This document shows positions 1,777 to 23,461 of a stretch of DNA of 32,125 nt, in pieces. This stretch comes from a virus (taxonomy: Duplodnaviria > Heunggongvirae > Uroviricota > Caudoviricetes), in the IMG/VR virus record IMGVR_UViG_2703718850_000013; one strand, given 5' to 3'. Below the pieces are notes generated by a model. It was not told the origin of the DNA. It saw only the letters and a list, made by a program, of their open reading frames with translations, and searched no databases. The translations under genes were made by a program, and so were the position numbers. Numbering within the stretch: the first letter of the stretch is position 1; each line of letters opens with the position of its first letter.

Positions 1777-2520
1777 TCATTTTTTCTTTAGAGTTATGAA
1801 GTTATCAATTGGATAGTTATCATCATATATATCTTTTATGAAAGATGAAATCTTATTGTGAAGTGAAATTGCTTTTGACTGTATAACGAAAAGCTCACTA
1901 CTAGTTTGATCCCTCACACATTCATCGGCCTGTATAAGTGCAGGAACCTCAGAACTTGCAATATAGAAATCGATACTCAGTCCGTTATATTCATCAATAT
2001 TTAATTTAAGTTCAGCAATAATGTTTTTTGTGTATTCGCTTAAAGCATAATTAGTTCTATCAATAGATTTTAAGGAATTAATAACGGAGTAAGAAGTGAA
2101 GAATAAATCGGAAACAAGAGCATCTGTTTCCTTCATAAACTCATCATGTGAATCTTGGGGTATGGTCTCGTTTTTTAAATGATTGCGATATTTTTTGGAG
2201 AATGTCACTAATTGATGTTTTAAAATTAAGGTTGAAGTACGTACTTTATTAAGATCTTGATAAATTGCTTTCTCAATAACACCATATACTACATCATAAT
2301 GTTTTTGCGACAACCATTCAGGTGCTTTTAGGTATGCTTGGTAGGCTACCCATAGTGTACCTAATGTACCTACAGCACTACATAATGTTCCAATTAAAGT
2401 TACCCACTCCCATCCTTTCGAACCAGAAAATAATATTTTTACACCAACTAATATAGCAATTAGCAGCAGTAATAGTACGGTACTTAGTAGTATTAAATTA
2501 TATTTTTTAATATTAAGCAT
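1777..2520 (-). CDS. 2TM membrane protein, paralog of 3498..4199 (start re-chosen at internal ATG)
   Basis: N-terminus MLNIKKYN...VKILFSGSKGWEW parallels MNIKTIN...VKVLFAGSRGFEW of the 3498..4199 product; two hydrophobic helices then an about 180-aa helical soluble region. The track start at 2568 adds 16 residues absent from the paralog. Confidence 0.6.
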   Translation of the reverse strand: MLNIKKYNLILLSTVLLLLLIAILVGVKILFSGSKGWEWVTLIGTLCSAVGTLGTLWVAYQAYLKAPEWLSQKHYDVVYGVIEKAIYQDLNKVRTSTLILKHQLVTFSKKYRNHLKNETIPQDSHDEFMKETDALVSDLFFTSYSVINSLKSIDRTNYALSEYTKNIIAELKLNIDEYNGLSIDFYIASSEVPALIQADECVRDQTSSELFVIQSKAISLHNKISSFIKDIYDDNYPIDNFITLKKK

Positions 2521-2584
2521 GTTAATCTCATTTCTTAAATAAAAGACATAGATGTATATATGTAGCATTGATGGATATATATTC

Positions 2585-2602
2585 CACTAATCATGATTAG
2601 TG
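2585..2602. promoter_or_regulatory. perfect 18-bp palindrome CACTAATCATGATTAGTG between two minus-strand genes
   Basis: Read directly; lies in the 118-nt gap between the 2639..3460 stop and the 2520 start, so it could be an operator or an attenuator hairpin. Confidence 0.3.
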
Positions 2603-2638
2603 CCTCTCTGATTAATAATGTGATACATGTCCATGTAA

Positions 2639-3460
2639 TTAATAACGGAAACTCCATGTTTTTCTACTCAAAGCTAACTTCTTATGGACAAGTAGAAATA
2701 CAAATATCTCATGGAGATATGGAACCAGAGGTTCTCTTATCCCTTTACTGTGCTCAATGTTGTCAATATCATCTTTAAATTTAGAAATTAGATAATAATA
2801 AGGCTGCAACATATCAATGATTTCAAACACAATATAAGGTGAAACGTTTATTACTTTCCAGGAAAGTATATACTCATCAATTTGGCTTAAAATCGCACCA
2901 TCAAGACCTCTATTCCAGGTGTAACCGTATGCTTTGTATTTGTCGGCCCATAAATTTAATTCTCTTTCTAGTTTTTGTTTTCTAGAATCAGTAATGTGTT
3001 TACGGAAGCAAGAATTAATTATTTCGTTCCACTGTGCTAACGGATCTTTGACTTCTTTTTTGCCTTTTACAATTTTATCAAGATTATAATATCTTGAAGC
3101 ATCAGCGAATTCAGAAAGCATTTCTAATATGAGGTTTTGCTGCCAGTTTAATTCCCACTCCAAATTGGGTAAATGGCTAGCACCATAGCTTGAACAGTTT
3201 TTATGAAGCTCCGCAATATTATGGCTGAATTTTTTAAGTGTACGGAAGTCTGGCTTCTCAAGATTATTTTCGATCATATGATTGAGTATGAAGATAATCT
3301 TAAAAAACCTTTCTATGCCAATTGATAATTGAAAGAAGCTGCTATAGAAGCTACCTTTATCATGTGCTCTACATTTCCGCACAGCAGTAAGCCCACCACC
3401 TATTGAGGTACTGGACAAATAAGACTCTACCATGAATTGATTAAATGACTCCCCAAGCAT
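2639..3460 (-). CDS. hypothetical cytoplasmic protein (273 aa), possible Abi/HEPN-like (weak)
   Basis: ORF with AAGGA Shine-Dalgarno 6 nt upstream of ATG at 3460; no TM segment; an R-x4-H motif (RKCRAH) near the N-terminus is the only HEPN-like hint. Confidence 0.55.
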   Translation of the reverse strand: MLGESFNQFMVESYLSSTSIGGGLTAVRKCRAHDKGSFYSSFFQLSIGIERFFKIIFILNHMIENNLEKPDFRTLKKFSHNIAELHKNCSSYGASHLPNLEWELNWQQNLILEMLSEFADASRYYNLDKIVKGKKEVKDPLAQWNEIINSCFRKHITDSRKQKLERELNLWADKYKAYGYTWNRGLDGAILSQIDEYILSWKVINVSPYIVFEIIDMLQPYYYLISKFKDDIDNIEHSKGIREPLVPYLHEIFVFLLVHKKLALSRKTWSFRY

Positions 3461-3497
3461 AAGCTTTCCTTTTTATTTACATCAATTAACTATAAAT

Positions 3498-4199
3498 TTA
3501 GCTGAACGAATAATCAGTATCAATATTTGTTTCACATAGCTCGTACTGAAATATGGCAGCTAGCTCTCTTTTAACACTTTCAAGATTTTCTGTAGCTGCA
3601 ATTACGTCCTCATGCTTGGGGCAATTAATATGTTTGCATATGGTCAATAGATATATATATTGATTGTCTAAATATGACTGCCTTAACTCTAATATATTTT
3701 TAAATAAATTTTCAAGCCGTTCGCTTAACTTAATATCAAACCTGGCTAGCATTGACCTTGTCGTATATAGCTTAGCAAGTTCAGATAAATCACTTGTGGC
3801 CTTTTTATTAATTTCAGCAGCAACTTTAGATTTTATTTCATCTGTCAGTTCTTTATTATCCTGAACATATTTCCTGATGGAAGCACGAACTATACCATCA
3901 TTATATAAACGTGAATTTATTTCCCATAACTGCATCTCAAATTTCATAGCCAACTGATGTGAGGTAGAAAGGGATTTTAATTTTTTATTCTGAACGAACC
4001 AATTATTTGCTACAAAAGCAGCACAAAGAGCTGTAGACGCAATCACGATATTGCATAACGCACTTGTTAAATCAGCTGCGTTCCCCCATTCAAACCCCCT
4101 GCTACCAGCGAATAGAACCTTAACGAGTACTAAGACTGCTAAAAACAGAAGTACTGCAACAATGCCGACAAGAGTAGAGTTTATAGTTTTTATATTCAT
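3498..4199 (-). CDS. 2TM membrane protein, paralog of 1777..2520
   Basis: Two N-terminal hydrophobic helices then a helical soluble domain; its ATG overlaps the upstream gene's TGA (ATGA at 4196-4199), implying coupling. Confidence 0.6.
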   Translation of the reverse strand: MNIKTINSTLVGIVAVLLFLAVLVLVKVLFAGSRGFEWGNAADLTSALCNIVIASTALCAAFVANNWFVQNKKLKSLSTSHQLAMKFEMQLWEINSRLYNDGIVRASIRKYVQDNKELTDEIKSKVAAEINKKATSDLSELAKLYTTRSMLARFDIKLSERLENLFKNILELRQSYLDNQYIYLLTICKHINCPKHEDVIAATENLESVKRELAAIFQYELCETNIDTDYSFS

Positions 4200-4747
4200 A
4201 ATTTATCAGCTATGTTAACTTCACTATAGAGCAAGCCTTTCAATTTCATCAAAGCTTCCCAAATTTCAGTTGGCTTACCGCTACAATTTCTAAGTAATAT
4301 TTCATCGTTTTCTTGTTTACTCAATGATGAATCATAAAACCGTGCTCCCAATTCTTCAAAATCATTTATAGCATTAGTAACCGTCCAAATCGCATCGTGA
4401 ATTTGTGGTGTCATGTATAATGTATAATCGAGAAGGAAGTCACTTGCTTTACTTTTAATTAAATCCTGTTTATAAAGCATAATTTGATCTAAAAGATCAC
4501 CATCATCATAAAAATTAAAATTTTCTGGAAGATTCAAAGAATTAATAAACTGAATGAAAGGTTTAATAGTTTGCTTTTTTTCTTTTAATTCATCTTCGAG
4601 TATTTTGAATAAAAGTTGTTTTTTTAGTTTTTCGTTCTCATATTTTTTAGTGATTAATTGGCTTGCCAATGTTACACCCGCAGCTATTAATGCACCGCCT
4701 AAAGTACCACCGACTGCAATGAGTTGTGTAATGGTTTCAGCTTCCAT
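4196..4747 (-). CDS. single-pass membrane protein (first gene of the putative four-gene operon; start re-chosen)
   Basis: One N-terminal TM helix (ITQLIAVGGTLGGALIAAGVTLA) then an about 150-aa soluble domain. The track start at 4771 is TTG; the ATG at 4745-4747 (MEAETITQ) is used here. No strong SD, so the start is uncertain. Confidence 0.5.
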   Translation of the reverse strand: MEAETITQLIAVGGTLGGALIAAGVTLASQLITKKYENEKLKKQLLFKILEDELKEKKQTIKPFIQFINSLNLPENFNFYDDGDLLDQIMLYKQDLIKSKASDFLLDYTLYMTPQIHDAIWTVTNAINDFEELGARFYDSSLSKQENDEILLRNCSGKPTEIWEALMKLKGLLYSEVNIADKL

Positions 4748-4818
4748 TTTTTTAGAAATCCAATATATCAAAGTGAAAAATGAACTTTACCATAATAACC
4801 ATTCTGGCGTAAACTATT

Positions 4819-4880
4819 AGCGACACGCCCCACTCATAAAGGGTAGGTTTGTTTAGTTGGTGTGTGTGGGACGTGTCGCT
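4819..4880. repeat. inverted repeat: 9-bp arms AGCGACACG (4819-4827) and CGTGTCGCT (4872-4880) with a 44-nt spacer
   Basis: Read directly; relatively GC-rich arms in an AT-rich intergenic region next to the octamer array. Confidence 0.5.
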
Positions 4881-4896
4881 GAACAGTTGGACTATG

Positions 4897-5024
4897 TTCT
4901 TATGTTCTTATGTTCTTATGTTCTTATGTTCTTATGTTCTTATGTTCTTATGTTCTTATGTTCTTATGTTCTTATGTTCTTATGTTCTTATGTTCTTATG
5001 TTCTTATGTTCTTATGTTCTTATG
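4897..5024. repeat. perfect tandem array, 16 x TTCTTATG (CATAAGAA on the minus strand)
   Basis: 128 nt of uninterrupted 8-nt periodicity read directly; intergenic between the HNH gene stop (5053) and the start of the 4747 operon. Confidence 0.95.
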
Positions 5025-5052
5025 TCTATATTTCTCAACCTTTAGTTGAAAA

Positions 5053-5856
5053 TCATTTAGGATAACTAACACAAGTATGACCAGAAATTACCATCATAAA
5101 TTGATTATTCTTTAAACCTACAAAGGGAAATGAAGCATAATCAATATTAGCCGTTGTCATATTAAAATGAAGAGATTGATCATATTGAGTCATTTCAGTT
5201 GCATGAATAGGAAATGTTCCTTGCTCCTTCAGTGTAACCAAAAAAGATATTGGGAAAAAATGTAAGCAAGAACATATACTATGATGTCCATTATTGTAGA
5301 ATGTAACTGACTGAGCAGTAATTTGTTTTCTGAATGGATAAAACCAATAGTAAATATTATGAGTTGCCCCAATGTCTGGATTCCTGCCTAATACAAAATT
5401 TCTCAATGGAGTATAAAAAGGACTATCAACAATAGGCTTCATACAATCTTTTACTGAAGTTGCAGCCAGAAGGTGTCCAATCATTGCTCTTAGAAATTTA
5501 TCCGCATCAAATTTTAATGAAATATAATTTTTGTAAAAGAACTTACCACTAAAATAATCATTTAACTTTTCGATGAATTCAGTTGTAACACGGCCTATTT
5601 CTGCATCCATTGATCCTAAAATATTCGAGTTACAATTGTGACAAATGGTACGAAAAGTTGTCCCGCTTTTTGCTTTAATTGGTGGTACTCGAGTATTAGA
5701 GAAATACTCAGAAATCGTTTTTTGTAACATAGGTGAAGGTTTAGATGCACATTGCGGGGGAACATGGTCTTTTTTTAATTTGCCAAAATTACCACATATT
5801 ACACAATATCCATTAGCTATTTTTACATGGTCAATTCTTTCAGAGACAAATTTCAT
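5053..5856 (-). CDS. HNH-endonuclease-domain protein with about 200-aa C-terminal extension of unknown function
   Basis: N-terminal CVICG-x7-DHVPP ... TICHNCN matches the HNH zinc-finger/His-Me pattern (CxxCG...DH..P...CxxCN). Confidence 0.6.
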   Translation of the reverse strand: MKFVSERIDHVKIANGYCVICGNFGKLKKDHVPPQCASKPSPMLQKTISEYFSNTRVPPIKAKSGTTFRTICHNCNSNILGSMDAEIGRVTTEFIEKLNDYFSGKFFYKNYISLKFDADKFLRAMIGHLLAATSVKDCMKPIVDSPFYTPLRNFVLGRNPDIGATHNIYYWFYPFRKQITAQSVTFYNNGHHSICSCLHFFPISFLVTLKEQGTFPIHATEMTQYDQSLHFNMTTANIDYASFPFVGLKNNQFMMVISGHTCVSYPK

Positions 5857-6179
5857 TCTGCAATCTCAAAAGTTAACATCACCAAAATATAGAGCATTCA
5901 AACACAATGTTCAATATGATTTTACTCTAACCAGTGTGCTATTTTTTATGCAAACTTATACATGGACGAATACTCAAACTGCGATAATAAACTGAAAATA
6001 TCGATATAAGAATTGATTTTATGAGTAATCATCATTATAGCCTATACCATGTAGCATTAACACTTTACCACCAAATAGAACATACATATACTATTGATTA
6101 TCGACCTAGGGTAAGTTTATCAATTATGGTACGATAGAATCTAAATAATCTATAGTAGCAAGAGGCTTAGGGGGAGATA

Positions 6180-6854
6180 ATGGAGTGGAAGAAAGAGCTT
6201 AGAGCAAAGTTTGAAAGAGACGAACTTAGAAGATTAATTTCTAATGTAAACTGGATTATATTCAAACCTAAAATAAAAAAGCAATTAGAAATACTATCAA
6301 CCCAATTATCAGGAGAGCATATAAGATTTAATATAATTGATATGCAAGATGAACCAGATGGTTATGGTTTTGATTGCCTGACATTTCAGATCGCTGATCG
6401 TATGACTGGAAATATGCGGCAGGAAAAAACTACCGAAAGCATAAAGTTTAATCATCATTGGCAAAAAGGAGCCGCACTTTCAATTACATATAGTGCGACG
6501 GGGGCTGTGCATATAATTCTTTTTCCGTCTACTTCAGATGATTCATTAGCAACACATGATTCCTTGATTGTCCATCATTCATATAACGTTAAACACATAA
6601 CACCAAAAAAAATAGAGAAAGCAGTAAAGAATTTACTTCATTATCACCGTGTTACAGGTGTTTTACACAAGGCCGCATTAAAAGATTTAATTTTAATCCG
6701 CTTACTGAAAATTAAGATGTTTTTTATTCAGTATAACGACAAAGAGAACAAGTTTAGAAGAGTTACAGCATTATATATACCTACATTAAGTCTTATAGTT
6801 TCGTTGGCTGCCGCAGTAGCATCTATTCTGGCATTAGTATCTGTTAAATCATGA
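6180..6854 (+). CDS. tail-anchored membrane protein (224 aa), unknown function
   Basis: Strong SD (GGGGGAG) before the ATG; single C-terminal hydrophobic helix (LSLIVSLAAAVASILALVSV); the only plus-strand gene in the island, convergent with the nucleotidyltransferase gene. Confidence 0.55.
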   Translation: MEWKKELRAKFERDELRRLISNVNWIIFKPKIKKQLEILSTQLSGEHIRFNIIDMQDEPDGYGFDCLTFQIADRMTGNMRQEKTTESIKFNHHWQKGAALSITYSATGAVHIILFPSTSDDSLATHDSLIVHHSYNVKHITPKKIEKAVKNLLHYHRVTGVLHKAALKDLILIRLLKIKMFFIQYNDKENKFRRVTALYIPTLSLIVSLAAAVASILALVSVKS

Positions 6855-6860
6855 TGATTA

Positions 6861-6890
6861 TAAGCCAGCAACTAACTGGCTTATAAATTA
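6861..6890 (+). terminator. putative intrinsic terminator after 6180..6854
   Basis: Stem TAAGCCAG / CTGGCTTA with 7-nt loop, followed by a T/A-rich tail, 7 nt after the stop codon. Confidence 0.45.
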
Positions 6891-7099
6891 GAAATTGGAA
6901 ACTATCTCTTCTCACAAAACTGCTATCTTTAGCGATAAGGGAATGTAATCTCCTGATACTGATGGTAGAGGAGCGGGTCATACAATCTTAGCAATCTCAT
7001 TTAGCTGTACGACGGTGGAATGTTTCAACTGTACTCAATTCTTACAAGTAAAAATATCGAGAATGATTTTTTGGATTCAAGCAAAGACAATGAGCTGTA

Positions 7100-7127
7100 C
7101 CCCCTTATAATTAGTAATATAAGGGGG
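7100..7127. terminator. hairpin CCCCCTTATA-loop-TATAAGGGGG between convergent genes
   Basis: 10-bp perfect stem with 8-nt loop, 5 nt downstream of the 7133..7909 stop; possibly bidirectional. Confidence 0.45.
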
Positions 7128-7132
7128 CAAGA

Positions 7133-7909
7133 TTATTTTATGGGTAAAATTTTCTTTATTTCATTTTCGGCGGCAAAATGATTGTTTAACTGCTCATAAT
7201 ATTTTGACATCATAACTGAATTTTTTAGACGCTGAATCTTATCTTTTTTCCATTGTGCGAGATAATAGGAACCTGAAAGTTGTTCTACAGCAGAGTAAAA
7301 ATATTCTTTAAGGGTAGAGCACCAAAAATAGTTAAAGCTAACAATATCTTTTTCAAGTTGATACGACTCAAAGACATAACCTGCATTGGCATTCCAATAT
7401 TTCATTATGCGAATAAGAGGCTTAATTAAATTGTTATTATTTTTATTGCAATTAGTTAAATCAGTATTGAACGCATTGGGATCGGTATTCATCCAACGGT
7501 TCAAAAAATCCTGGTTGGAAGGGATTTGATAACCAAATAAAATATTATGAGATGCAGGGACAAGCTCGAAAGTAATATGATTAAGGTTCAATTGAATAGT
7601 AGGGTGGCTTTGCTTTATTTCAGATGTACGATAGTAATAATTTACAAAACCCCTTAGCTTGTTTAGGTAGGTCTGAGGCTGATATATTACATTTTTGAAT
7701 ACAACCATATAATCAACATCAGAAGAAGGATCATAGCTACGAGGAAGCATTGTATTACGTGAATATGAGCCAAATACAAAATGACTAACAAGTTCACCAG
7801 CAAAATAACCATTCAGTCTGTTTTTTATGGTTGCAATTGAATTCGTTATTGTAATATCTCTTTGATAAGCATTGCTTTTAATAGACTCAAGATAGGTACT
7901 GACTGTCAT
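7133..7909 (-). CDS. pol-beta-type nucleotidyltransferase, SMODS/CD-NTase-like
   Basis: FGSYSRNT...SDVDY (hG[GS]-x9-13-DxD) plus a later acidic residue (FELVP); AAGGAA SD 6 nt upstream; start lies 2 nt after the upstream gene's stop. Confidence 0.6.
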   Translation of the reverse strand: MTVSTYLESIKSNAYQRDITITNSIATIKNRLNGYFAGELVSHFVFGSYSRNTMLPRSYDPSSDVDYMVVFKNVIYQPQTYLNKLRGFVNYYYRTSEIKQSHPTIQLNLNHITFELVPASHNILFGYQIPSNQDFLNRWMNTDPNAFNTDLTNCNKNNNNLIKPLIRIMKYWNANAGYVFESYQLEKDIVSFNYFWCSTLKEYFYSAVEQLSGSYYLAQWKKDKIQRLKNSVMMSKYYEQLNNHFAAENEIKKILPIK

Positions 7910-7911
7910 GT

Positions 7912-8415
7912 TTATTCCTTGTCAATATTATACTTAGTAAAGCCTTGGTTAACATCTCTTTGAGTTTTCTCATAAGCCCACCGAGGAATATTTGGCGAAC
8001 TTGAATTAAGTTGATTGCGTCGATCAGAGTAACTCGTAAGTTTTTCAATCAAAGTTTTATCAGTAAAATCAAAATTAGAAGTCAATATTTCCCTAAATAT
8101 TCTAACTTCATTCTTTAATTTATTATATTCATTTGCTGCTGATTTATGAAGTGCAGCACGCTTACTTGGGTTAAGAGACGTATTTAATGCAGTTAGAATT
8201 GTAGCAGTTATGGAAATAGCTACAACAGCATTGGCTGTACTCTTGATTGCGGCAATACCACTCAAAGCGGTTAAGATTGCTAATGGTACACCGAACCACA
8301 GATTCAGCTTATCCCATCTATCAGAAACATTATAATGAGATTTAGAAGAGTACAGAGCGTCCTCTTCTATACGATGACACTCAGAAATGACTGTTTGGAT
8401 GAGCTTCTGATTCAT
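7912..8415 (-). CDS. 2TM membrane protein, SLATT-like effector candidate (start re-chosen)
   Basis: About 40-aa N-terminal region, two TM helices (LWFGVPLAILTALSGIAAI; AVVAISITATILTAL), helical C-terminal region; tightly coupled to the nucleotidyltransferase gene. ATG at 8413-8415 has a GGAG SD; the track start is a GTG two codons upstream. Confidence 0.55.
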   Translation of the reverse strand: MNQKLIQTVISECHRIEEDALYSSKSHYNVSDRWDKLNLWFGVPLAILTALSGIAAIKSTANAVVAISITATILTALNTSLNPSKRAALHKSAANEYNKLKNEVRIFREILTSNFDFTDKTLIEKLTSYSDRRNQLNSSSPNIPRWAYEKTQRDVNQGFTKYNIDKE

Positions 8416-8579
8416 AAACACTCCAACAAATCCGATTCCCTAACAGTATAACATGGTAGGGTTAATAAATACTATAGGTACTTCCCTCTGAATAGACACA
8501 ATCGGGAAGTTTCGCCGCGAACTATTTTTTTTGCATATTAAATATTTTAAATAACACAAACAAAACCTGGATAAACAAA

Positions 8580-9101
8580 TTGAACGATAGATATACAACA
8601 AACGAAATTGCAGAACGTATGGGAGTTAATGACAGTACTGTAAGCCGTGAATGGGCAAAACGTGGAATGCCACACCCAAAGAAAGCAAGTAAAAAAGAAA
8701 TAGATCAATGGATACTAATTAATATTATCCAACCATTGCGAAATACTGATGTAAAAGAACAGATTGAAAAAGAGAAATTACGCAAGATATCACTTGAAGC
8801 AGATTTAGTTGAGATTGAATTAAATATCAGTACTGAAAAGGTATTGAGTACTGATTATGTAACTCAAACACTAACTGGTTATTTTGCAGCACTACGCGGA
8901 GTACTAAGAAGTATTCCGGCATCTATCTATGTAGAACTATTTGAAAGTGAAGATGCGGATACATTGCGGATAAAACTAGAAGAAAGGATTGATGAGAAAC
9001 TAAGGGAATTAGGATCATATGAGTACGAAGAACAGCCAGAAGAAGATGATGAAGATTCTGAACCAGAGTCTGAAATCAATATTACCCCCACCGAAGATTA
9101 A
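8580..9101 (+). CDS. terminase small subunit, lambda Nu1-like
   Basis: N-terminal HTH TNEIAERMGVNDSTVSREWAKRGMP resembles Nu1 (…IRTIQNWQEQGMP) and EKEKLRK resembles Nu1 ENEKLRR; acidic C-terminus. Track start is TTG with no clear SD, so the true start is uncertain. Confidence 0.6.
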   Translation: MNDRYTTNEIAERMGVNDSTVSREWAKRGMPHPKKASKKEIDQWILINIIQPLRNTDVKEQIEKEKLRKISLEADLVEIELNISTEKVLSTDYVTQTLTGYFAALRGVLRSIPASIYVELFESEDADTLRIKLEERIDEKLRELGSYEYEEQPEEDDEDSEPESEINITPTED

Positions 9102-10938
9102 ACCATCTGAATGGTGTGAACAATATACTGTATTTCCAGATGGACCACTGGCACAACAAAAAACTAAATTATTTTCATTTCAAGTAGAACCCCTAAACGC
9201 CACAGTAGATCCATCAGTACAGAAGATCTGTTTAATGAGTAGTGCACAATTACTCAAGACAACAATACTACAAAATGCAATGCTTTACAGGATGGCAAAT
9301 AAACCCTCCCATATGATATTTGCGGGTAGTAGTGGTAGTACTGTGAAAAAGTTCCGTACTGGTAAATGGATGGATACTATTAATGCGTGTCCAAACCTTC
9401 AAGCATTAATCACTGACAAATCAGATAAGAATGCAGTAAACGATCTACACACTCAACAGAACGTTGACGGTACTAAGACATACTTTGTTAACCTCAATTC
9501 TAGCCAGTCCCTACGCTCGCTTACAGTTCCTGCAATCTTCATTGATGAATTATCAGGTGTAGATCCAGAACAAGATGAGGGCAACCCCCTATCACTCATA
9601 GAACAGCGTGCAACTCAGTTTGGTAAGAACTCCCTGATCGTGATGGCCTCCACACCATTAGTACAGGACGATATGATCTGCCAGCAATGGGAACTCTCAG
9701 ACCAGAGACATTTTCATGTCGTGTGTCCACATTGTGATCATGACCATATTTTAGAATGGGAGAATATAAAGTTTGAATGGGTGAAGTTCAACGAACGACG
9801 TAATGCACCAGAACCCACTACAGCACGCCTACACTGTCCAGGATGTGATGAAGTAATCACTGAAGGGCAACGTGCACGGATGGTTGCAAAAGGTTACTGG
9901 AAAGCACACAGACTGCATGTGATGGGTTTCAGGGGATACCATGTTAATAGACTATATTCACCGATTACTACTATTGAGAAGATTGTTGAAGACTTTAAGA
10001 ACTCATGGATAAACTTTGAAGAACAATCTTTCTATAATAACGTACTCGGTTTACCGTGGGTAGATAAGAATAATATTAAAGAAGATCTTACAGTACTGGA
10101 AAACTTACGCGACTTTGATTTAGATGTAAAACATATTCCAGATAATGCACTTGGTATTGTACTGGCATGTGACCAACAGATAGACCGCTTAGAATGTAGT
10201 ACTATTGCATTTGATGAAAAGAATATATGGGTTCTGGACCACCGTATGTTTTATGGTGTCGATTGTACTAAGTATGAAGATAAGGCATATACTGAACTAC
10301 TTAATTATAGTAAGAGTATATTTAAAACCACTTCAGGTAGAAAAGTACCAGTACTGAGATCCTTTATTGATAGCTCAAACGGATCTGCAACCAGTTCCAT
10401 ATATCGCTTTTGTTCTTCCAGTGGGGGACGATGGCATGCAATTAAGGGTGCAAACACACAGACTGGTCCCATCACGAAGGATTCCACAACGGCAGGACAT
10501 CAACTGGTTAATATTAATACTCAAGTACTGAAGCACCAGGTTAAGAAGTTATTACGACAGGCATGTGAAGGGGGAGAGTATAGTACTAATATACACTTCA
10601 GTCATTCCCTTGTCGATGATTACTTCCTCCAACTTACAGCAGAAAAACTAGTACGAAAAGGTTCAGTGATGGTATGGGAGAATCCAAATGGAGAGCGTAA
10701 CGAATGTCTCGATACGCTCGTCTACTCATTAGCAGCGATTGATCACAAGATACAGGCACTTGGTGCACAACCGTATAGGAAGTTGCGAGAGTATAGAGCT
10801 AAACAAAAAGAACTAAATACTAAAGTAGAAGAATCCATAAAAACTAAAGCAGAACAACAACCAGTACAGAAAGAGAAGCAGAAATCAAAACCTAAGAAAA
10901 AAGGACTTTCAGCACTTAATAATCGTAACTGGTTTTAA
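9019..10938 (+). CDS. terminase large subunit, GpA-like
   Basis: 639 aa, immediately after TerS, with cysteine/histidine clusters (CPHCDHDH; CPGCDE); AGGA SD before ATG 9019; overlaps TerS by 83 nt (alternative ATGs at 9046/9049). Confidence 0.8.
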   Translation: MSTKNSQKKMMKILNQSLKSILPPPKIKPSEWCEQYTVFPDGPLAQQKTKLFSFQVEPLNATVDPSVQKICLMSSAQLLKTTILQNAMLYRMANKPSHMIFAGSSGSTVKKFRTGKWMDTINACPNLQALITDKSDKNAVNDLHTQQNVDGTKTYFVNLNSSQSLRSLTVPAIFIDELSGVDPEQDEGNPLSLIEQRATQFGKNSLIVMASTPLVQDDMICQQWELSDQRHFHVVCPHCDHDHILEWENIKFEWVKFNERRNAPEPTTARLHCPGCDEVITEGQRARMVAKGYWKAHRLHVMGFRGYHVNRLYSPITTIEKIVEDFKNSWINFEEQSFYNNVLGLPWVDKNNIKEDLTVLENLRDFDLDVKHIPDNALGIVLACDQQIDRLECSTIAFDEKNIWVLDHRMFYGVDCTKYEDKAYTELLNYSKSIFKTTSGRKVPVLRSFIDSSNGSATSSIYRFCSSSGGRWHAIKGANTQTGPITKDSTTAGHQLVNINTQVLKHQVKKLLRQACEGGEYSTNIHFSHSLVDDYFLQLTAEKLVRKGSVMVWENPNGERNECLDTLVYSLAAIDHKIQALGAQPYRKLREYRAKQKELNTKVEESIKTKAEQQPVQKEKQKSKPKKKGLSALNNRNWF

Positions 10939-11436: not shown

Positions 11437-12429
11437 ATGTTTAATTTTAATTTTAGAAAGGCAAAGGAACAGCCAAAAGAAGAACCAAAACTATATATTG
11501 GTAAGGCAAAAATACGTACTGAACCAGTACTTGGTAATTTAGGTATTGAAACCAAACGTTCCATTTCTTCCATCGGTAACGGTAACGCAGCCGCACAACT
11601 TGGTACATTTGGTGCAGTTGGTAAGAGTGGCTCGATCAATGCCGTAATTAACCGTGTATTGAACACGGCAGTACTACAAAGTCGCCAGCTTAGTATGAGT
11701 AACCCAATTCATAAGAAGTATATTGCACAGAATGCCAGTAGTGTATGTGGTGCAAATGGTATTACGTATCGTCCATGTGTTCACGTTGCTGAAGATGACA
11801 ATGTTAATAATGATATTAATAAACGTCTCGCCGATGCGTTCTACTCATGGTGTGAAGACCCCGCACGTTTTTCCCTAAATGGAAAACTTGAAATGTCCAA
11901 ATTCCAGTCACTGGTAGAGAAGACACGTTCAATTGATGGTAGTTGTTTTATTCGTATCCATCCTGGTATGAAGATTGAAGTACTAGACAGTACTGTAATT
12001 GATACGAAAGGTAATCAATGGCTAAGTAATGGTAACTATCGTTCAAATGGTATTGAGTTTGAAAAAGGCACTGGTAAACCCGTTGCTTACTTTCTAACAC
12101 AATATGACCCCGTATCGTACTCAGTTAGTACTGAAGCAGAACGTGTACCCGCAGAAGAGATCCTTCACTTATTCAGTACTGACTATCCAGAACAGCAACG
12201 CGGCATTCCCGATATATTTTGCGGTACTGGACTACTGGCAGACCTGGATAAATTCATGAGGGCGTCAATCAAGACGCGACAATTAGCAGCGGAAAGCATG
12301 GGTTTTATCACGAATGCGTCACGTGATGCATCATTTGAAGATATTGATGATGATGACGATTCTGATGTAGATGAATACCAGGTTGCACGTATGGAGGGTG
12401 GAGTACTGTTAGAACTTCGTGAGGGTTAA
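11437..12429 (+). CDS. portal protein, N-terminal segment (ends at an in-frame TAA)
   Basis: Position after TerL; weak resemblance to lambda gpB from memory; followed in the same frame by 12433..12948. Confidence 0.6.
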   Translation: MFNFNFRKAKEQPKEEPKLYIGKAKIRTEPVLGNLGIETKRSISSIGNGNAAAQLGTFGAVGKSGSINAVINRVLNTAVLQSRQLSMSNPIHKKYIAQNASSVCGANGITYRPCVHVAEDDNVNNDINKRLADAFYSWCEDPARFSLNGKLEMSKFQSLVEKTRSIDGSCFIRIHPGMKIEVLDSTVIDTKGNQWLSNGNYRSNGIEFEKGTGKPVAYFLTQYDPVSYSVSTEAERVPAEEILHLFSTDYPEQQRGIPDIFCGTGLLADLDKFMRASIKTRQLAAESMGFITNASRDASFEDIDDDDDSDVDEYQVARMEGGVLLELREG

Positions 12430-12898
12430 GATGTGAAGTCACTCAGTCCATCACAAACATTCGACGCACTACAGGAATTTCTAGATAACCAGTTGATTTT
12501 CATAGGGATGTCACTCGATCTTACACCACAGACGTTAACAGGTTCGACCGCAGGGGCATCATTCAGTGCCTCGAAGTTAACAGACAAAATTCAGCAAAAT
12601 ACATTTCTTGCAAAACAAAACAACCTGGTTAAGTCAGTACTTCAACCTTTGTATATTAAGTGGCTCAAGAATGAAATGCTAAATAACCCGATGTTGAAGG
12701 ATTTGCCATTTAGTAAATTTACTGAACTAACTGAATGTAATTTCATTCCACAACGTCATATTAGTCTAGACCCACTGAAAGATTTACAGACTGAGATTCT
12801 CGCAATGGAAAATGGATTAAAGAGTAAAGAACAAATAATTTCTGAGATGGGCTATTCACCAGTACTAACCCATGAGCAGATTACTAAGGAAGAAACAG

Positions 12899-15014
<2,116 letters not shown>

Positions 15015-20879: not shown

Positions 20880-21170
20880 ATGCTGATGACAAAAGGGTGT
20901 GGTGTGGAAGATCTCTGCACCATGCCCTTTTCGCTTTTTATCTATCTATTTGTATATGACACTTTTGTAGAACCAAATTCTTCCAGAATTGAACAGGTAA
21001 GACATACCGAAATACTCCAGGCTATATGGCTCAGTACTGGGAATATTAAGAAGGAAGACTTAAAGAAATTCAGTATCACAGAATTGGATTCTCTTAATAT
21101 CATCAACAATAAGACCATTAAAGAACAAGCCGAAGAGAGAGAAACGGATCGCCGAAGAACAGAGAGCTAA
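20880..21170 (+). CDS. T-like extension, probably expressed as a G-T fusion by -1 frameshifting rather than from its own ATG
   Basis: In the -1 frame relative to 20557..20847, with that frame open upstream across the slippery site. Confidence 0.5.
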   Translation: MLMTKGCGVEDLCTMPFSLFIYLFVYDTFVEPNSSRIEQVRHTEILQAIWLSTGNIKKEDLKKFSITELDSLNIINNKTIKEQAEERETDRRRTES

Positions 21171-21199: not shown

Positions 21200-23461
21200 A
21201 TGGCAGGGAATAAACAACAGATGATTTTTGAAATCACTGGTGATGAATCTGGGTTACAAAAATCTTTAAAAAGTGCTGGCAATGGACTTGCCGACTTTGG
21301 TGATCGTGCTGGTGGTGTATTTGGTGGTATTAGTGGTGGACTAAGCACAATGGCAACTGGTCTTGGTGGTGTTGGTAATGCGGCAACCTTGGCAATTACA
21401 GCTATTACAGCACTGACTACATATACAATTGGTCTTGCAAACGAGATCAACGCATTGACCCGTACAACCGGACTGAGTGCCGAGCAACTTCAGCAGTGGT
21501 CAGGAGCATTCAAAACCATAGGATTATCTATGGAAGAAGTTGGTTCGATTAACGAAGCAGTGATGGACCAGCTTGGTATTGCGTCTGCTGACGGTTCTGG
21601 TGTTGGTGCCGACTTAAAAACATTCGGCGTAGATGTAAATAGCCTAATACCGACATTAAAACAGGCAGATGGTGGTTTACAGGCATTGTCAAAAGTCTTT
21701 TTTGATATGAAAAAGAATGGTGCAAATCTTGCCGAAATAACAAATATGATCAACGCCCTCGGTGGTGATGCTGCAAAACTAATACCGACATTCAACTCTT
21801 TTAACAGTGAGATTGAATTTAATAACTCTCTTGCAGCCCAGAACGTAGCAATGACTAATGAACAGGCAAAAACATTTGATCTGTTAAGTCAGAATACTTC
21901 AGGTCTTGGTAGTGGACTGAAAACTCTTGCATTTGAAATTGTTACACCCCTCATTGATATTTTTAATGGACTCGTAAAAGCCTGTAAGGAAATATATCAA
22001 TGGTTTGACAACCTCAAAACAAAAGCAGTTGAGTTTATTAATTCATTCTTTAACTGGGATTCAAATAATACGATCATACAGTCGTTATACGATCAGGTAA
22101 TTAAATTCTATGACATGATCCGTAATGTAGGCTCAAAGATTGGCCTTGAATTACCCGAGTTTACACCAGAGCAAATAGCAAAAGGACGTAAACACGTACA
22201 GACAGCAGCCGATGCAGTTTTCTCACCACTAGGCCCAGGTATTGGTGGTCTTGCTGCCCTTGCCCGTGGATATTCTCAGGAAGACTATAAACCAACCACA
22301 AAGGCATATACAGGAACGACAAAAGAGCGTTCTAACTTTGATGATGGTAAAGCAGGGGAAGAAGCGAAAAAAGCCAGTGATAAGGCCGCAAAGGATCGTA
22401 TTCAGGCTGCCAAAGTACTGGAACAGACTATGAATGGTATTGCAGGTAATGGTGCTGCCCTCCAGCTACAGCAATTTAATAAGACCCAGGATGAAATAGA
22501 ACAACGCATTAAAACAAGTGCAACTACTCTCGGTAAAACTGAAGCTGAAAAGACTGAACTATTAAGAAAGCAGACTGATTCACGTAAACGCCTGTATAAA
22601 GAAATGGTTGATTCAATGCTCACCGAAAGTGACCCACTTAAACTTGCCCAGAATATTTCAGCAATTGGTGGTTCTATGTCAGGGAAAGACCTTAATTCAG
22701 TACTGGCAGGTCAAAACGAACGTATGGGACTTAATCAAGATCCATTCAATATGAGTGCCGATCAGAACACGCTCGATACATTAGCAACAGAAGGACAGGC
22801 CGAATTAGCACTGAATCAAAGTCTGTATGAACAGAAGTTATTAAGTTATCAGGATTACCAAGATCGCATGGTAGCAATTCAACAATCTACTACAGACAAA
22901 ATGAGTCAGGCTAATATTGATGCCCAGCAAAAGACACTTTCTATGTATGCAACGGGTGCTCAGGATCTCGGTACTACTCTTGCAGGTGTATTTGGTGAAA
23001 GTAATGCTATGGCAAAAGCTGCATTTGCAATGAGCAAAGGGATCGCAGTTGCCCAGTCTATTATCAATATTCAGCAGGGTATTTCAGAGGCTATGAAACT
23101 TGGATGGCCTATGGGGATTCCAGCAGGGCTTAAAGTAGCTGCCGAAGGTGCCAATATTGTCAGTACGATTAAGGGTACAAAGATTGAAGGGCAGGCACAT
23201 GATGGCTGGGACTCACTACCGAAGACTGGTACATATAATCTTGAAAAAGGTGAACGTGTTGTAGGTAAATCTCTGAACCAGGACTTGACACAGTACTTGA
23301 ATAATAAGGGTGGTGATAAAGGCGGTGATATTAAAATTGATGCCCCTTTAATTATTCAGGGTGCCGGAGAACTCACAGATTCAAAATTCCAGAGTATGTG
23401 TGATAAACACGCCGATACTATCACTCAGGCAGTACGTAAAAGCCAACAGAGGAACGTCTAA
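21200..23461 (+). CDS. tail tape measure protein
   Basis: 753 aa, Gly/Ala-rich hydrophobic segments near the N-terminus, long helical body, directly after the chaperone pair. Confidence 0.8.
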   Translation: MAGNKQQMIFEITGDESGLQKSLKSAGNGLADFGDRAGGVFGGISGGLSTMATGLGGVGNAATLAITAITALTTYTIGLANEINALTRTTGLSAEQLQQWSGAFKTIGLSMEEVGSINEAVMDQLGIASADGSGVGADLKTFGVDVNSLIPTLKQADGGLQALSKVFFDMKKNGANLAEITNMINALGGDAAKLIPTFNSFNSEIEFNNSLAAQNVAMTNEQAKTFDLLSQNTSGLGSGLKTLAFEIVTPLIDIFNGLVKACKEIYQWFDNLKTKAVEFINSFFNWDSNNTIIQSLYDQVIKFYDMIRNVGSKIGLELPEFTPEQIAKGRKHVQTAADAVFSPLGPGIGGLAALARGYSQEDYKPTTKAYTGTTKERSNFDDGKAGEEAKKASDKAAKDRIQAAKVLEQTMNGIAGNGAALQLQQFNKTQDEIEQRIKTSATTLGKTEAEKTELLRKQTDSRKRLYKEMVDSMLTESDPLKLAQNISAIGGSMSGKDLNSVLAGQNERMGLNQDPFNMSADQNTLDTLATEGQAELALNQSLYEQKLLSYQDYQDRMVAIQQSTTDKMSQANIDAQQKTLSMYATGAQDLGTTLAGVFGESNAMAKAAFAMSKGIAVAQSIINIQQGISEAMKLGWPMGIPAGLKVAAEGANIVSTIKGTKIEGQAHDGWDSLPKTGTYNLEKGERVVGKSLNQDLTQYLNNKGGDKGGDIKIDAPLIIQGAGELTDSKFQSMCDKHADTITQAVRKSQQRNV

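Follow-up and report, generated by a model that had tools for sequence, protein, structure and literature searches.

A hypermutable octanucleotide tandem array between a cargo gene and a membrane-protein gene cluster of an Escherichia coli prophage

Does the length of a short tandem array upstream of a cluster of membrane-protein genes in an Escherichia coli prophage act as a regulatory switch? The array lies in a stretch of 32,125 nucleotides (hereafter the window) that represents a tailed prophage, with genes for the large terminase (9019-10938), portal, capsid, tape-measure protein (21200-23461) and a J-like tail protein. The window is 99.9-100% identical to a prophage of E. coli strain N61, which is integrated beside yggS and next to a serine recombinase. 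The initial annotation placed the array in the promoter or 5' leader of the downstream operon and regarded it as a contingency locus that could make this operon phase-variable. Our analysis favors a different reading, with a probability of about 70%: a VNTR made by slippage in a 3' trailer or intercistronic spacer, which is neutral, or has a weak graded effect at best, and is not a conserved ON/OFF switch.

The accessory region that contains the array is low in GC (31-34%) and lies upstream of the terminase genes. Read along the minus strand, this region comprises a CBASS pair, a 224-aa gene on the opposite strand, a 267-aa gene, the spacer with the array, and genes of 183, 233, 273, and 263 (247) aa (Table 1). 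Three of the four proteins encoded downstream of the array have N-terminal hydrophobic segments, in agreement with the membrane-protein cluster proposed initially, and a 2-TM module at the N-terminus is common to the 233-aa and the 263-aa protein (BLASTP, 42% identity over 64 aa). Searches of the four proteins against Pfam, PADLOC, PHROG and NCBIfam gave no assignment, and a PDB sequence search of the downstream proteins, including the 273-aa protein, returned no informative match. The 183-aa protein has eight homologue clusters, of which the named ones are only from E. coli and E. fergusonii. A megablast of positions 4200-5900 against the phage GenBank collection gave no match.

Table 1. Features of the array region and its surroundings, in minus-strand order.
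Feature	Position	Strand	Basis or remark
Type I CBASS-like pair	7133-8421	-	SMODS cyclase and SLATT 2TM effector, between terminase genes and array region
SLATT 2TM effector, 169 aa	7912-8421	-	CBASS partner
SMODS oligonucleotide cyclase, 258 aa	7133-7909	-	PADLOC Cyclase, E = 3.5e-113
Consensus-like promoter of 267-aa gene, TTGAAC-17-TATATT	5886..5914	-	promoter scan; weak, number of sites equals shuffle expectation
267-aa gene, CxxC..DHVPP..CxxCN metal-binding protein with weakly HNH-like N-terminus	5053..5856	-	array in its 3' trailer
9-bp stem-loop directly after stop codon of 267-aa gene, no T-run	5031..5052	-	RNA fold
ATATAGA, followed by array	array 5024-4897	-	sequence
Octanucleotide VNTR, (CATAAGAA)16 + CATA on minus strand	4893..5024	-	TRF, raw sequence, homologous loci with other copy numbers
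CATAGTCCAACTG	directly after array	-	sequence
GC-rich inverted repeat/hairpin between array and promoter, arms 15-18 bp, loop 26-33 nt	4819..4880	-	repeat search, DNA and RNA fold
Candidate sigma-70 promoter of 183-aa gene, TTTACG-18-TGgTAAAGT	4784..4813	-	conservation in relatives and consensus
-35 element TTTACG	4813-4808	-	coordinates
18-nt spacer, then extended -10 element TGgTAAAGT	4792-4784	-	coordinates
34 nt after -10, then ATG of 183-aa gene	4747	-	coordinates
183-aa gene, N-terminal TM segment, first gene downstream of array	4196..4747	-	ORF; 183 aa called in all loci
233-aa gene	3498-4199	-	overlaps stop of 183-aa gene
273-aa gene	2639-3460	-	ORF, co-oriented with 183-aa gene
263/247-aa gene	1777-2568	-	ORF, co-oriented with 183-aa gene

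The gene upstream of the array had been labeled an HNH gene. Its family occurs in Enterobacterales and other gammaproteobacteria, often mislabelled as 'chaperonin' in the NCBI annotation, and has the invariant residues C18, C21, D30-H31-V-P-P, C72, and C75-N76. A PHROG HNH family matches residues 3-36 (E = 0.004). An AlphaFold (AF2) model of the protein is confident (pLDDT 86, pTM 0.88) and gave no significant match when compared to PDB folds. The evidence reaches as far as an HNH-like N-terminal metal finger joined to an unknown C-terminal domain. In Citrobacter freundii (L057, 4001-5260) a homologue of the 267-aa gene is followed, after 34 nt, by a gene for a paralogue of the 263-aa membrane protein of the window. 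This arrangement hints at a possible cooperation of the 267-aa gene with the genes downstream of it, and the pair of a 267-aa and a 263-like protein may be an uncharacterised two-component module, perhaps in defence.

In the raw sequence, positions 4897-5024 read (TTCTTATG)16 on the plus strand without a single deviation. Tandem Repeats Finder also gave one array (4893-5025; period 8, 16.6 copies, 100% matches, no indels, score 266), and both results confirm the perfect 16-copy octanucleotide array that was noted at first. A partial unit adjoins the array at 4893-4896 (TATG on the plus strand, equivalent to CATA on the minus strand). The 12-mer CATAAGAACATA occurs 16 times, always within the array, and has no other exact match in the 32-kb window; with at most one mismatch allowed, 0.4 matches are expected by chance in the window. 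In the minus-strand direction, the stop codon of the 267-aa ORF precedes the array and the start codon of the 183-aa membrane-protein gene follows it, and the ORF coordinates thus agree with the intergenic position between the upstream gene and the downstream cluster that had been assigned to it.

Every minus-strand frame of the array is interrupted by a TAA at intervals of 24 nt, which makes the array non-coding on this strand. Its interpretation as a coding repeat was rejected. The plus-strand frames, by contrast, are open in all three cases, read (FLCSYVLM)n and contain an ATG every 24 nt, and hence yield three mechanical ORFs (4849-5049, 4857-5045, and 4910-5065). These ORFs are absent from relatives with one copy, and the spurious nature that had been ascribed to array-derived ORFs is borne out. 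Arrays of the same 8-mer elsewhere were judged unrelated: three copies of TTCTTATG in the viral contig L012 stand in a different AT-rich repeat context, and those in 19 stretches from unrelated phyla were attributed to chance or independent origin and not to a family. Among species representatives of the Enterobacterales, no array of the 8-mer was found.

Comparison of the copy number across related isolates, the check that had been suggested, gave 1-16 copies in near-identical backgrounds and supports the proposed slipped-strand hypermutability. Homologous loci were gathered by exact-protein look-ups, flank-anchored DNA patterns and BLAST, and units were counted by exact regular expression. 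The resulting 30 loci carry 1, 2, 3, 4, 5, 7, 8, or 16 copies, and all changes are of whole units. In nature, a single copy predominates (19/30 loci): it is found in 10 degraded-island copies, three apparently intact prophages (L016, L019, and L020), four metagenome contigs, and two contigs of a relative at 86% identity; the latter (L032) reads CATGAGAA-CATA, with an A>G change in the proto-repeat. Two copies are present in L014 and L018, three in L015 and L017, four in L022 and L055, five in L011 and L013 (strain N61), seven in L021, eight in L054, and 16 in the window. A metagenome scan with a flank-anchored pattern yielded four loci, all with one copy. The locus is present in 90 of 5426 complete E. 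coli genomes; among the best 60 of these 90 matches, 59 span 981 bp, equivalent to one copy, and the other 30 rank lower. Strain N61 is the sole complete E. coli genome (1/5426) with a near-intact prophage, carries five copies, and is the only one with more than one copy among the matches listed. Across assemblies in general, the intact prophage, as traced by a 158-aa marker protein, is present in roughly 111 assembly blocks.

A remnant of the prophage region, with the CBASS, 224-aa and 267-aa genes and the four-gene cluster (approximately 1777-9500 of the window), is widespread in E. coli chromosomes (L001-L010 and 89/5426 complete genomes, e.g., NC_011748.1 of strain 55989). In 9 of the 10 remnant loci fetched, an IS21 element lies beside a terminase gene cut to approximately 164 aa, and the remaining one (L008) has other upstream DNA; an IS3 element follows the gene cluster in most. 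Among the remnant loci fetched and the matches listed, the island carries one copy of the VNTR unit.

All alleles with at least three copies belong to one clade, whose members differ from the window by at most four SNPs over approximately 20 kb. The 6.5-kb flanks are identical (0 SNPs and 0 gaps) among loci with 3, 3, 5, 5, 7, and 16 copies. Across the clade, approximately eight SNP events over approximately 20 kb compare with at least six changes of the array, and rough arithmetic from these counts indicates that the array changes at least ~10^4-fold faster, per site, than point substitutions occur. As whole-unit changes far outpace SNPs, the array is a genuine hypermutable VNTR. Within this clade all alleles are expanded and none has returned to one or two copies, a pattern to which selection could have contributed besides mutation pressure. 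All alleles with at least three copies also share a C>T change in the hairpin downstream of the array (position 4871, 5' arm); since only one clade carries this change, causation is inseparable from shared ancestry.

The loci with 4, 8, and 16 copies (L055, L054, and the window) have a private portal stop and an AG deletion in common, and are separated by one or two SNPs in 21 kb. Their copy numbers are exact doublings, which could result from duplication of the whole array by unequal exchange instead of single-unit slippage, or from coincidence. The stop at 12427-12429 (…LELREG*DVKSL…) splits the portal gene of the window into ORFs at 11437-12429 and 12433-12948. It is shared only with the siblings L054-L056; in eight near-identical relatives, position 12427 is a C and the 503-aa portal is intact, and the sub-lineage with the portal stop is probably defective. 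The AG was lost at 21134 from the run gaagagagag at 21126-21136 (ORF 20880-21170, just upstream of the tape-measure gene), in the window and in L054 and L055 as opposed to all other relatives that cover the site, and shortens the ORF from 106 to 96 aa. It represents a second slippage-type change in the sub-lineage, in a region where tail-chaperone frameshifting usually occurs. Other length changes were observed among the relatives as well: a 48-bp gain in the capsid/scaffold gene of L018, within its acidic repeat region (approximately 13460-13530 of the window), a loss of 6 bp from a run of TTTAAT hexamers at the beginning of the portal gene (11440-11455) of L019, a 5-bp deletion in the portal gene (12611-12615) of L021, and a 6-bp gain in the 224-aa gene (6358) of L022. 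Tail genes of L013 and L022 carry IS3 insertions.

The ancestral state of the array is a 12-nt proto-repeat, CATAAGAA-CATA, in which a 4-nt direct repeat surrounds AAGA. We infer that this proto-repeat, in the non-coding 3' trailer of the 267-aa cargo gene, gave rise to the array by replication slippage or unequal exchange. Once at least two units were present, whole units would be gained and lost much faster than point substitutions arise, leading to the 3-16 copies in one very young clade. Loops of 8 nt escape the MutS-dependent mismatch repair of E. coli, which covers loops up to approximately 4 nt. Transcription of the array would be restricted to mRNAs from the 267-aa gene, in which it would form the 3' UTR or an intercistronic spacer, and changes in its length would most likely be neutral, with at most a graded tuning of read-through or of 3'-end stability.

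The position of the array relative to the promoter of the 183-aa gene bears directly on a regulatory role. The hairpin that follows the array (arms 4880-4866 and 4833-4819, extendable to 18-22 pairs) is an inverted repeat unique in the window and has a z-score of -5.85 in the DNA fold. Beyond it lies the candidate promoter, which scores below the threshold of a strict consensus scanner. This strict scan detected no site within the spacer (4748-5052), but its site counts equal the shuffle expectation and the scan alone is uninformative. Relatives of the 183-aa protein at 86, 74, and 68% identity are encoded at the same position in related prophages, and in an alignment with these the columns TTTAC ... 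TGnTAAAnT are invariant, with a fixed spacer and a conserved leader. In two of the three relatives, the upstream cargo differs from the 267-aa gene. Upstream of the -35 element, L027 shows only partial relatedness and L034 none; both lack the array site and have kept TTTAC-18-TGnTAAAnT and the leader.

Because this footprint is conserved across relatives with different cargo, it places the candidate promoter of the 183-aa gene, as judged from conservation and consensus, downstream of the array and the hairpin. By the same footprint, the array site appears to be part of the 3' trailer of the 267-aa gene, outside the conserved regulatory module. The array ends 83 bp before the -35 element, with the hairpin in between; as it lies upstream of both the hairpin and the conserved promoter, it would be outside the core promoter and leader of the 183-aa gene. 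This argues against the location in the promoter or 5' leader of the operon that was assumed in the initial annotation. The promoter region itself (4784-4813) is nearly symmetric, with TTTACC-18-TAAACT as its reverse complement on the plus strand. This is possibly a weak antisense promoter, directed into the hairpin, the array and the 3' terminus of the 267-aa gene.

The slot upstream of the 183-aa gene (L032 5012-6000, L027 5070-6000, L034 4000-6000) is occupied by the 267-aa gene, a 189-aa gene or a gene for a 606-aa OLD-family AAA+TOPRIM nuclease. The 189-aa gene, found in E. fergusonii-type phages, and the OLD-family nuclease gene of L034 each have their own terminator. From these arrangements, the slot looks like a hotspot of cargo exchange, with its boundary at the 5' arm of the hairpin (TTCAGCGACA).

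We consider it unlikely that the array is a contingency locus of the rheostat type, in which its length would tune the 183/233/273/263-aa cluster, or the 267-aa gene via the 3' UTR, in a graded way. Such tuning could occur on read-through mRNA from the 267-aa gene or through a changed spacing to upstream DNA elements, and would result in heritable, reversible heterogeneity of a prophage accessory or defence function in a lysogen population. The demonstrated hypermutability, a unit length that is not a multiple of 3, and the intergenic location in a defence-island setting beside a type I CBASS would suit this role, but the conserved promoter is located downstream, with the 83-bp gap and the hairpin separating it from the array. 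A scan for intrinsic terminators identified none between the 267-aa and 183-aa genes, so that read-through transcripts carrying the array are possible, with the consensus-like promoter of the 267-aa gene as a possible source, and possibly in these transcripts only the array is part of a leader. The adjacency of the 267-aa and 263-like genes in Citrobacter likewise makes a functional coupling of the genes possible. The strong hairpin after the array is loosely reminiscent of the 5'-UTR with simple sequence repeats and a hairpin of hmw (PMC12721329), the expression of which drops as the number of 7-bp repeats rises in a range of 9-28 (PMC2424069). However, the RNA of the array is fully unpaired in the predicted fold, whereas the hmw repeats constitute one arm of the hairpin, and a search of 4000-9200 against Rfam (E<=1) found no family.

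The distribution of alleles also speaks against a maintained regulatory tract. Long tracts are not retained at this site, given the predominance of one copy, the mutated site in L032 and its absence from L027 and L034, whereas hmw keeps at least 11 repeats, according to a section title of the source (PMC12721329). The alleles of 1, 2, 3, 4, 5, 7, 8, and 16 copies display no helical-phase periodicity. The array is neither within nor abutting the conserved -35 and -10 elements and has no usable promoter inside it. The single-copy majority, the A>G change in L032, the lack of helical-phase periodicity and the unstructured repeat RNA thus argue against a classical contingency locus in a promoter or leader, and the proposal of a phase-variable operon finds no support in either position or comparison.

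To our knowledge, E. coli is not a species known for switching based on simple sequence repeats. That the prophage nevertheless carries a true contingency locus, in which octanucleotide slippage in the intact-phage clade, on a read-through mRNA with the hairpin, sets a graded and heritable level of an uncharacterised cluster of the 267-aa HNH-like protein and the membrane proteins next to the CBASS, is rather improbable. If array length did tune the neighboring genes, this prophage defence island would harbor an SSR-based contingency locus of a kind that is rare in E. coli. Phase variation would then be connected with accessory or defence functions encoded by a phage, and lysogen populations could hedge costly protection or exclusion against fitness; this stronger reading draws no support from the present evidence. 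As a slippage-made VNTR, the locus is a clean E. coli example, has a mutation rate orders of magnitude above that of its flanks, provides a high-resolution marker for tracking the prophage lineage, and explains contig breaks and spurious ORFs in annotations.

It is very unlikely that the 16 copies are an artefact of assembly or sequencing. A perfect repeat of 128 bp is at the limit of short-read assembly, the short-read contig of a sibling (L056) terminates within the array, and an exact look-up of the two longest spurious plus-strand ORFs, as a search for other 16-copy assemblies, returned none on record. Yet independent assemblies contain multi-copy arrays of whole units at the same site, including two with a chromosome-scale 4.8-Mb record (N61 with five copies, CP099166.1 with four), and siblings of the window carry four and eight copies. 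The existence of the array is certain; the exact number of 16 copies in the window is uncertain.

We give hardly any credence to a classical ON/OFF promoter switch, in which the copy number would alter the spacing of -35 and -10 elements or make and destroy a promoter. What suggests it is only the intergenic position upstream of a gene. Scanning and inspection revealed no sigma-70-like pair of hexamers with a usable spacer in or across the array on either strand, and the spacers possible in an 8-bp register are 14/15 or 22/23 nt. Moreover, the gene clusters with one copy are intact in the remnant loci L001-L010 and in the prophages L016, L019, and L020, and for the conserved promoter, 83 bp downstream, the switch is effectively refuted. 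Protein-binding or functional RNA repeats, be it iterons of an origin or partition site, operators or the antitoxin RNA of a type III toxin-antitoxin system, are just as improbable and were rejected: the succession of direct repeats, hairpin and gene superficially recalls the toxI-terminator-toxN layout, but the 8-nt unit is too short compared to iterons of ~17-22 bp and type III antitoxins of ~34-45 nt, the three apparently intact prophages carry one copy, the motif is found nowhere else in the phage, the downstream TM protein matches no ToxN, Abi, PADLOC or Pfam entry, and Rfam has no match.

Several known systems combine short repeats with a downstream gene. In type III toxin-antitoxin loci, toxI repeats are followed by a terminator and toxN, and the present locus resembles these in its direct repeats, stem-loop and gene in a phage-defence neighborhood; its unit, however, is 8 nt and not ~36 nt, is predicted to be unstructured and is present as one copy in most relatives, and the product of the downstream gene is membrane-anchored, with no ToxN-like match. 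Slippage-prone non-coding repeats upstream of a gene are also known as the (TAAA)n tract upstream of the -35 element of Neisseria meningitidis nadA, the (TA)n tract between the -35 and -10 elements of Haemophilus influenzae hifA/B and the T-tract of Helicobacter pylori sabA. These tracts abut or lie in the core promoter or regulator sites, whereas the present array is located 83 bp upstream of the -35 element, on the far side of the hairpin.

The closest functional analogue is the 7-bp (ATCTTTC)n repeat of H. influenzae hmw1A/hmw2A, for which 9-28 repeats correlate inversely with the mRNA level (PMC2424069). It is transcribed in the 5' UTR of the gene itself, where it forms one arm of a hairpin processed by RNase III, and a section title of the same source has at least 11 repeats retained in nature (PMC12721329). 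Both loci have a non-triplet unit of 7-8 bp in an intergenic position upstream of a surface or membrane gene, a wide range of copy numbers and a hairpin nearby. The present array differs in that the conserved promoter lies downstream of it, its RNA is predicted to be unpaired and one copy is commonest; it is thus set apart from hmw by its probable position outside the leader of the gene, by the lack of repeat-RNA pairing and by the lack of long-tract maintenance.

When the literature was searched for every rotation of the unit and for E. coli VNTRs with 8-bp repeats, the matches were at most primer noise, and no paper was found to give the unit in a relevant context. Intergenic repeats of the bacterial VNTR/MLVA type are polymorphisms from slipped-strand mispairing that are used for strain typing, and many are located in prophage or intergenic DNA of E. 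coli. The present locus differs from these in being confined to one rare prophage lineage, with the remnant island at one copy among the loci fetched and matches listed. It shares with them perfect short head-to-tail units, whole-unit polymorphism in near-identical genomes and no demonstrated function, and the array fits this generic class of VNTR/MLVA repeats.
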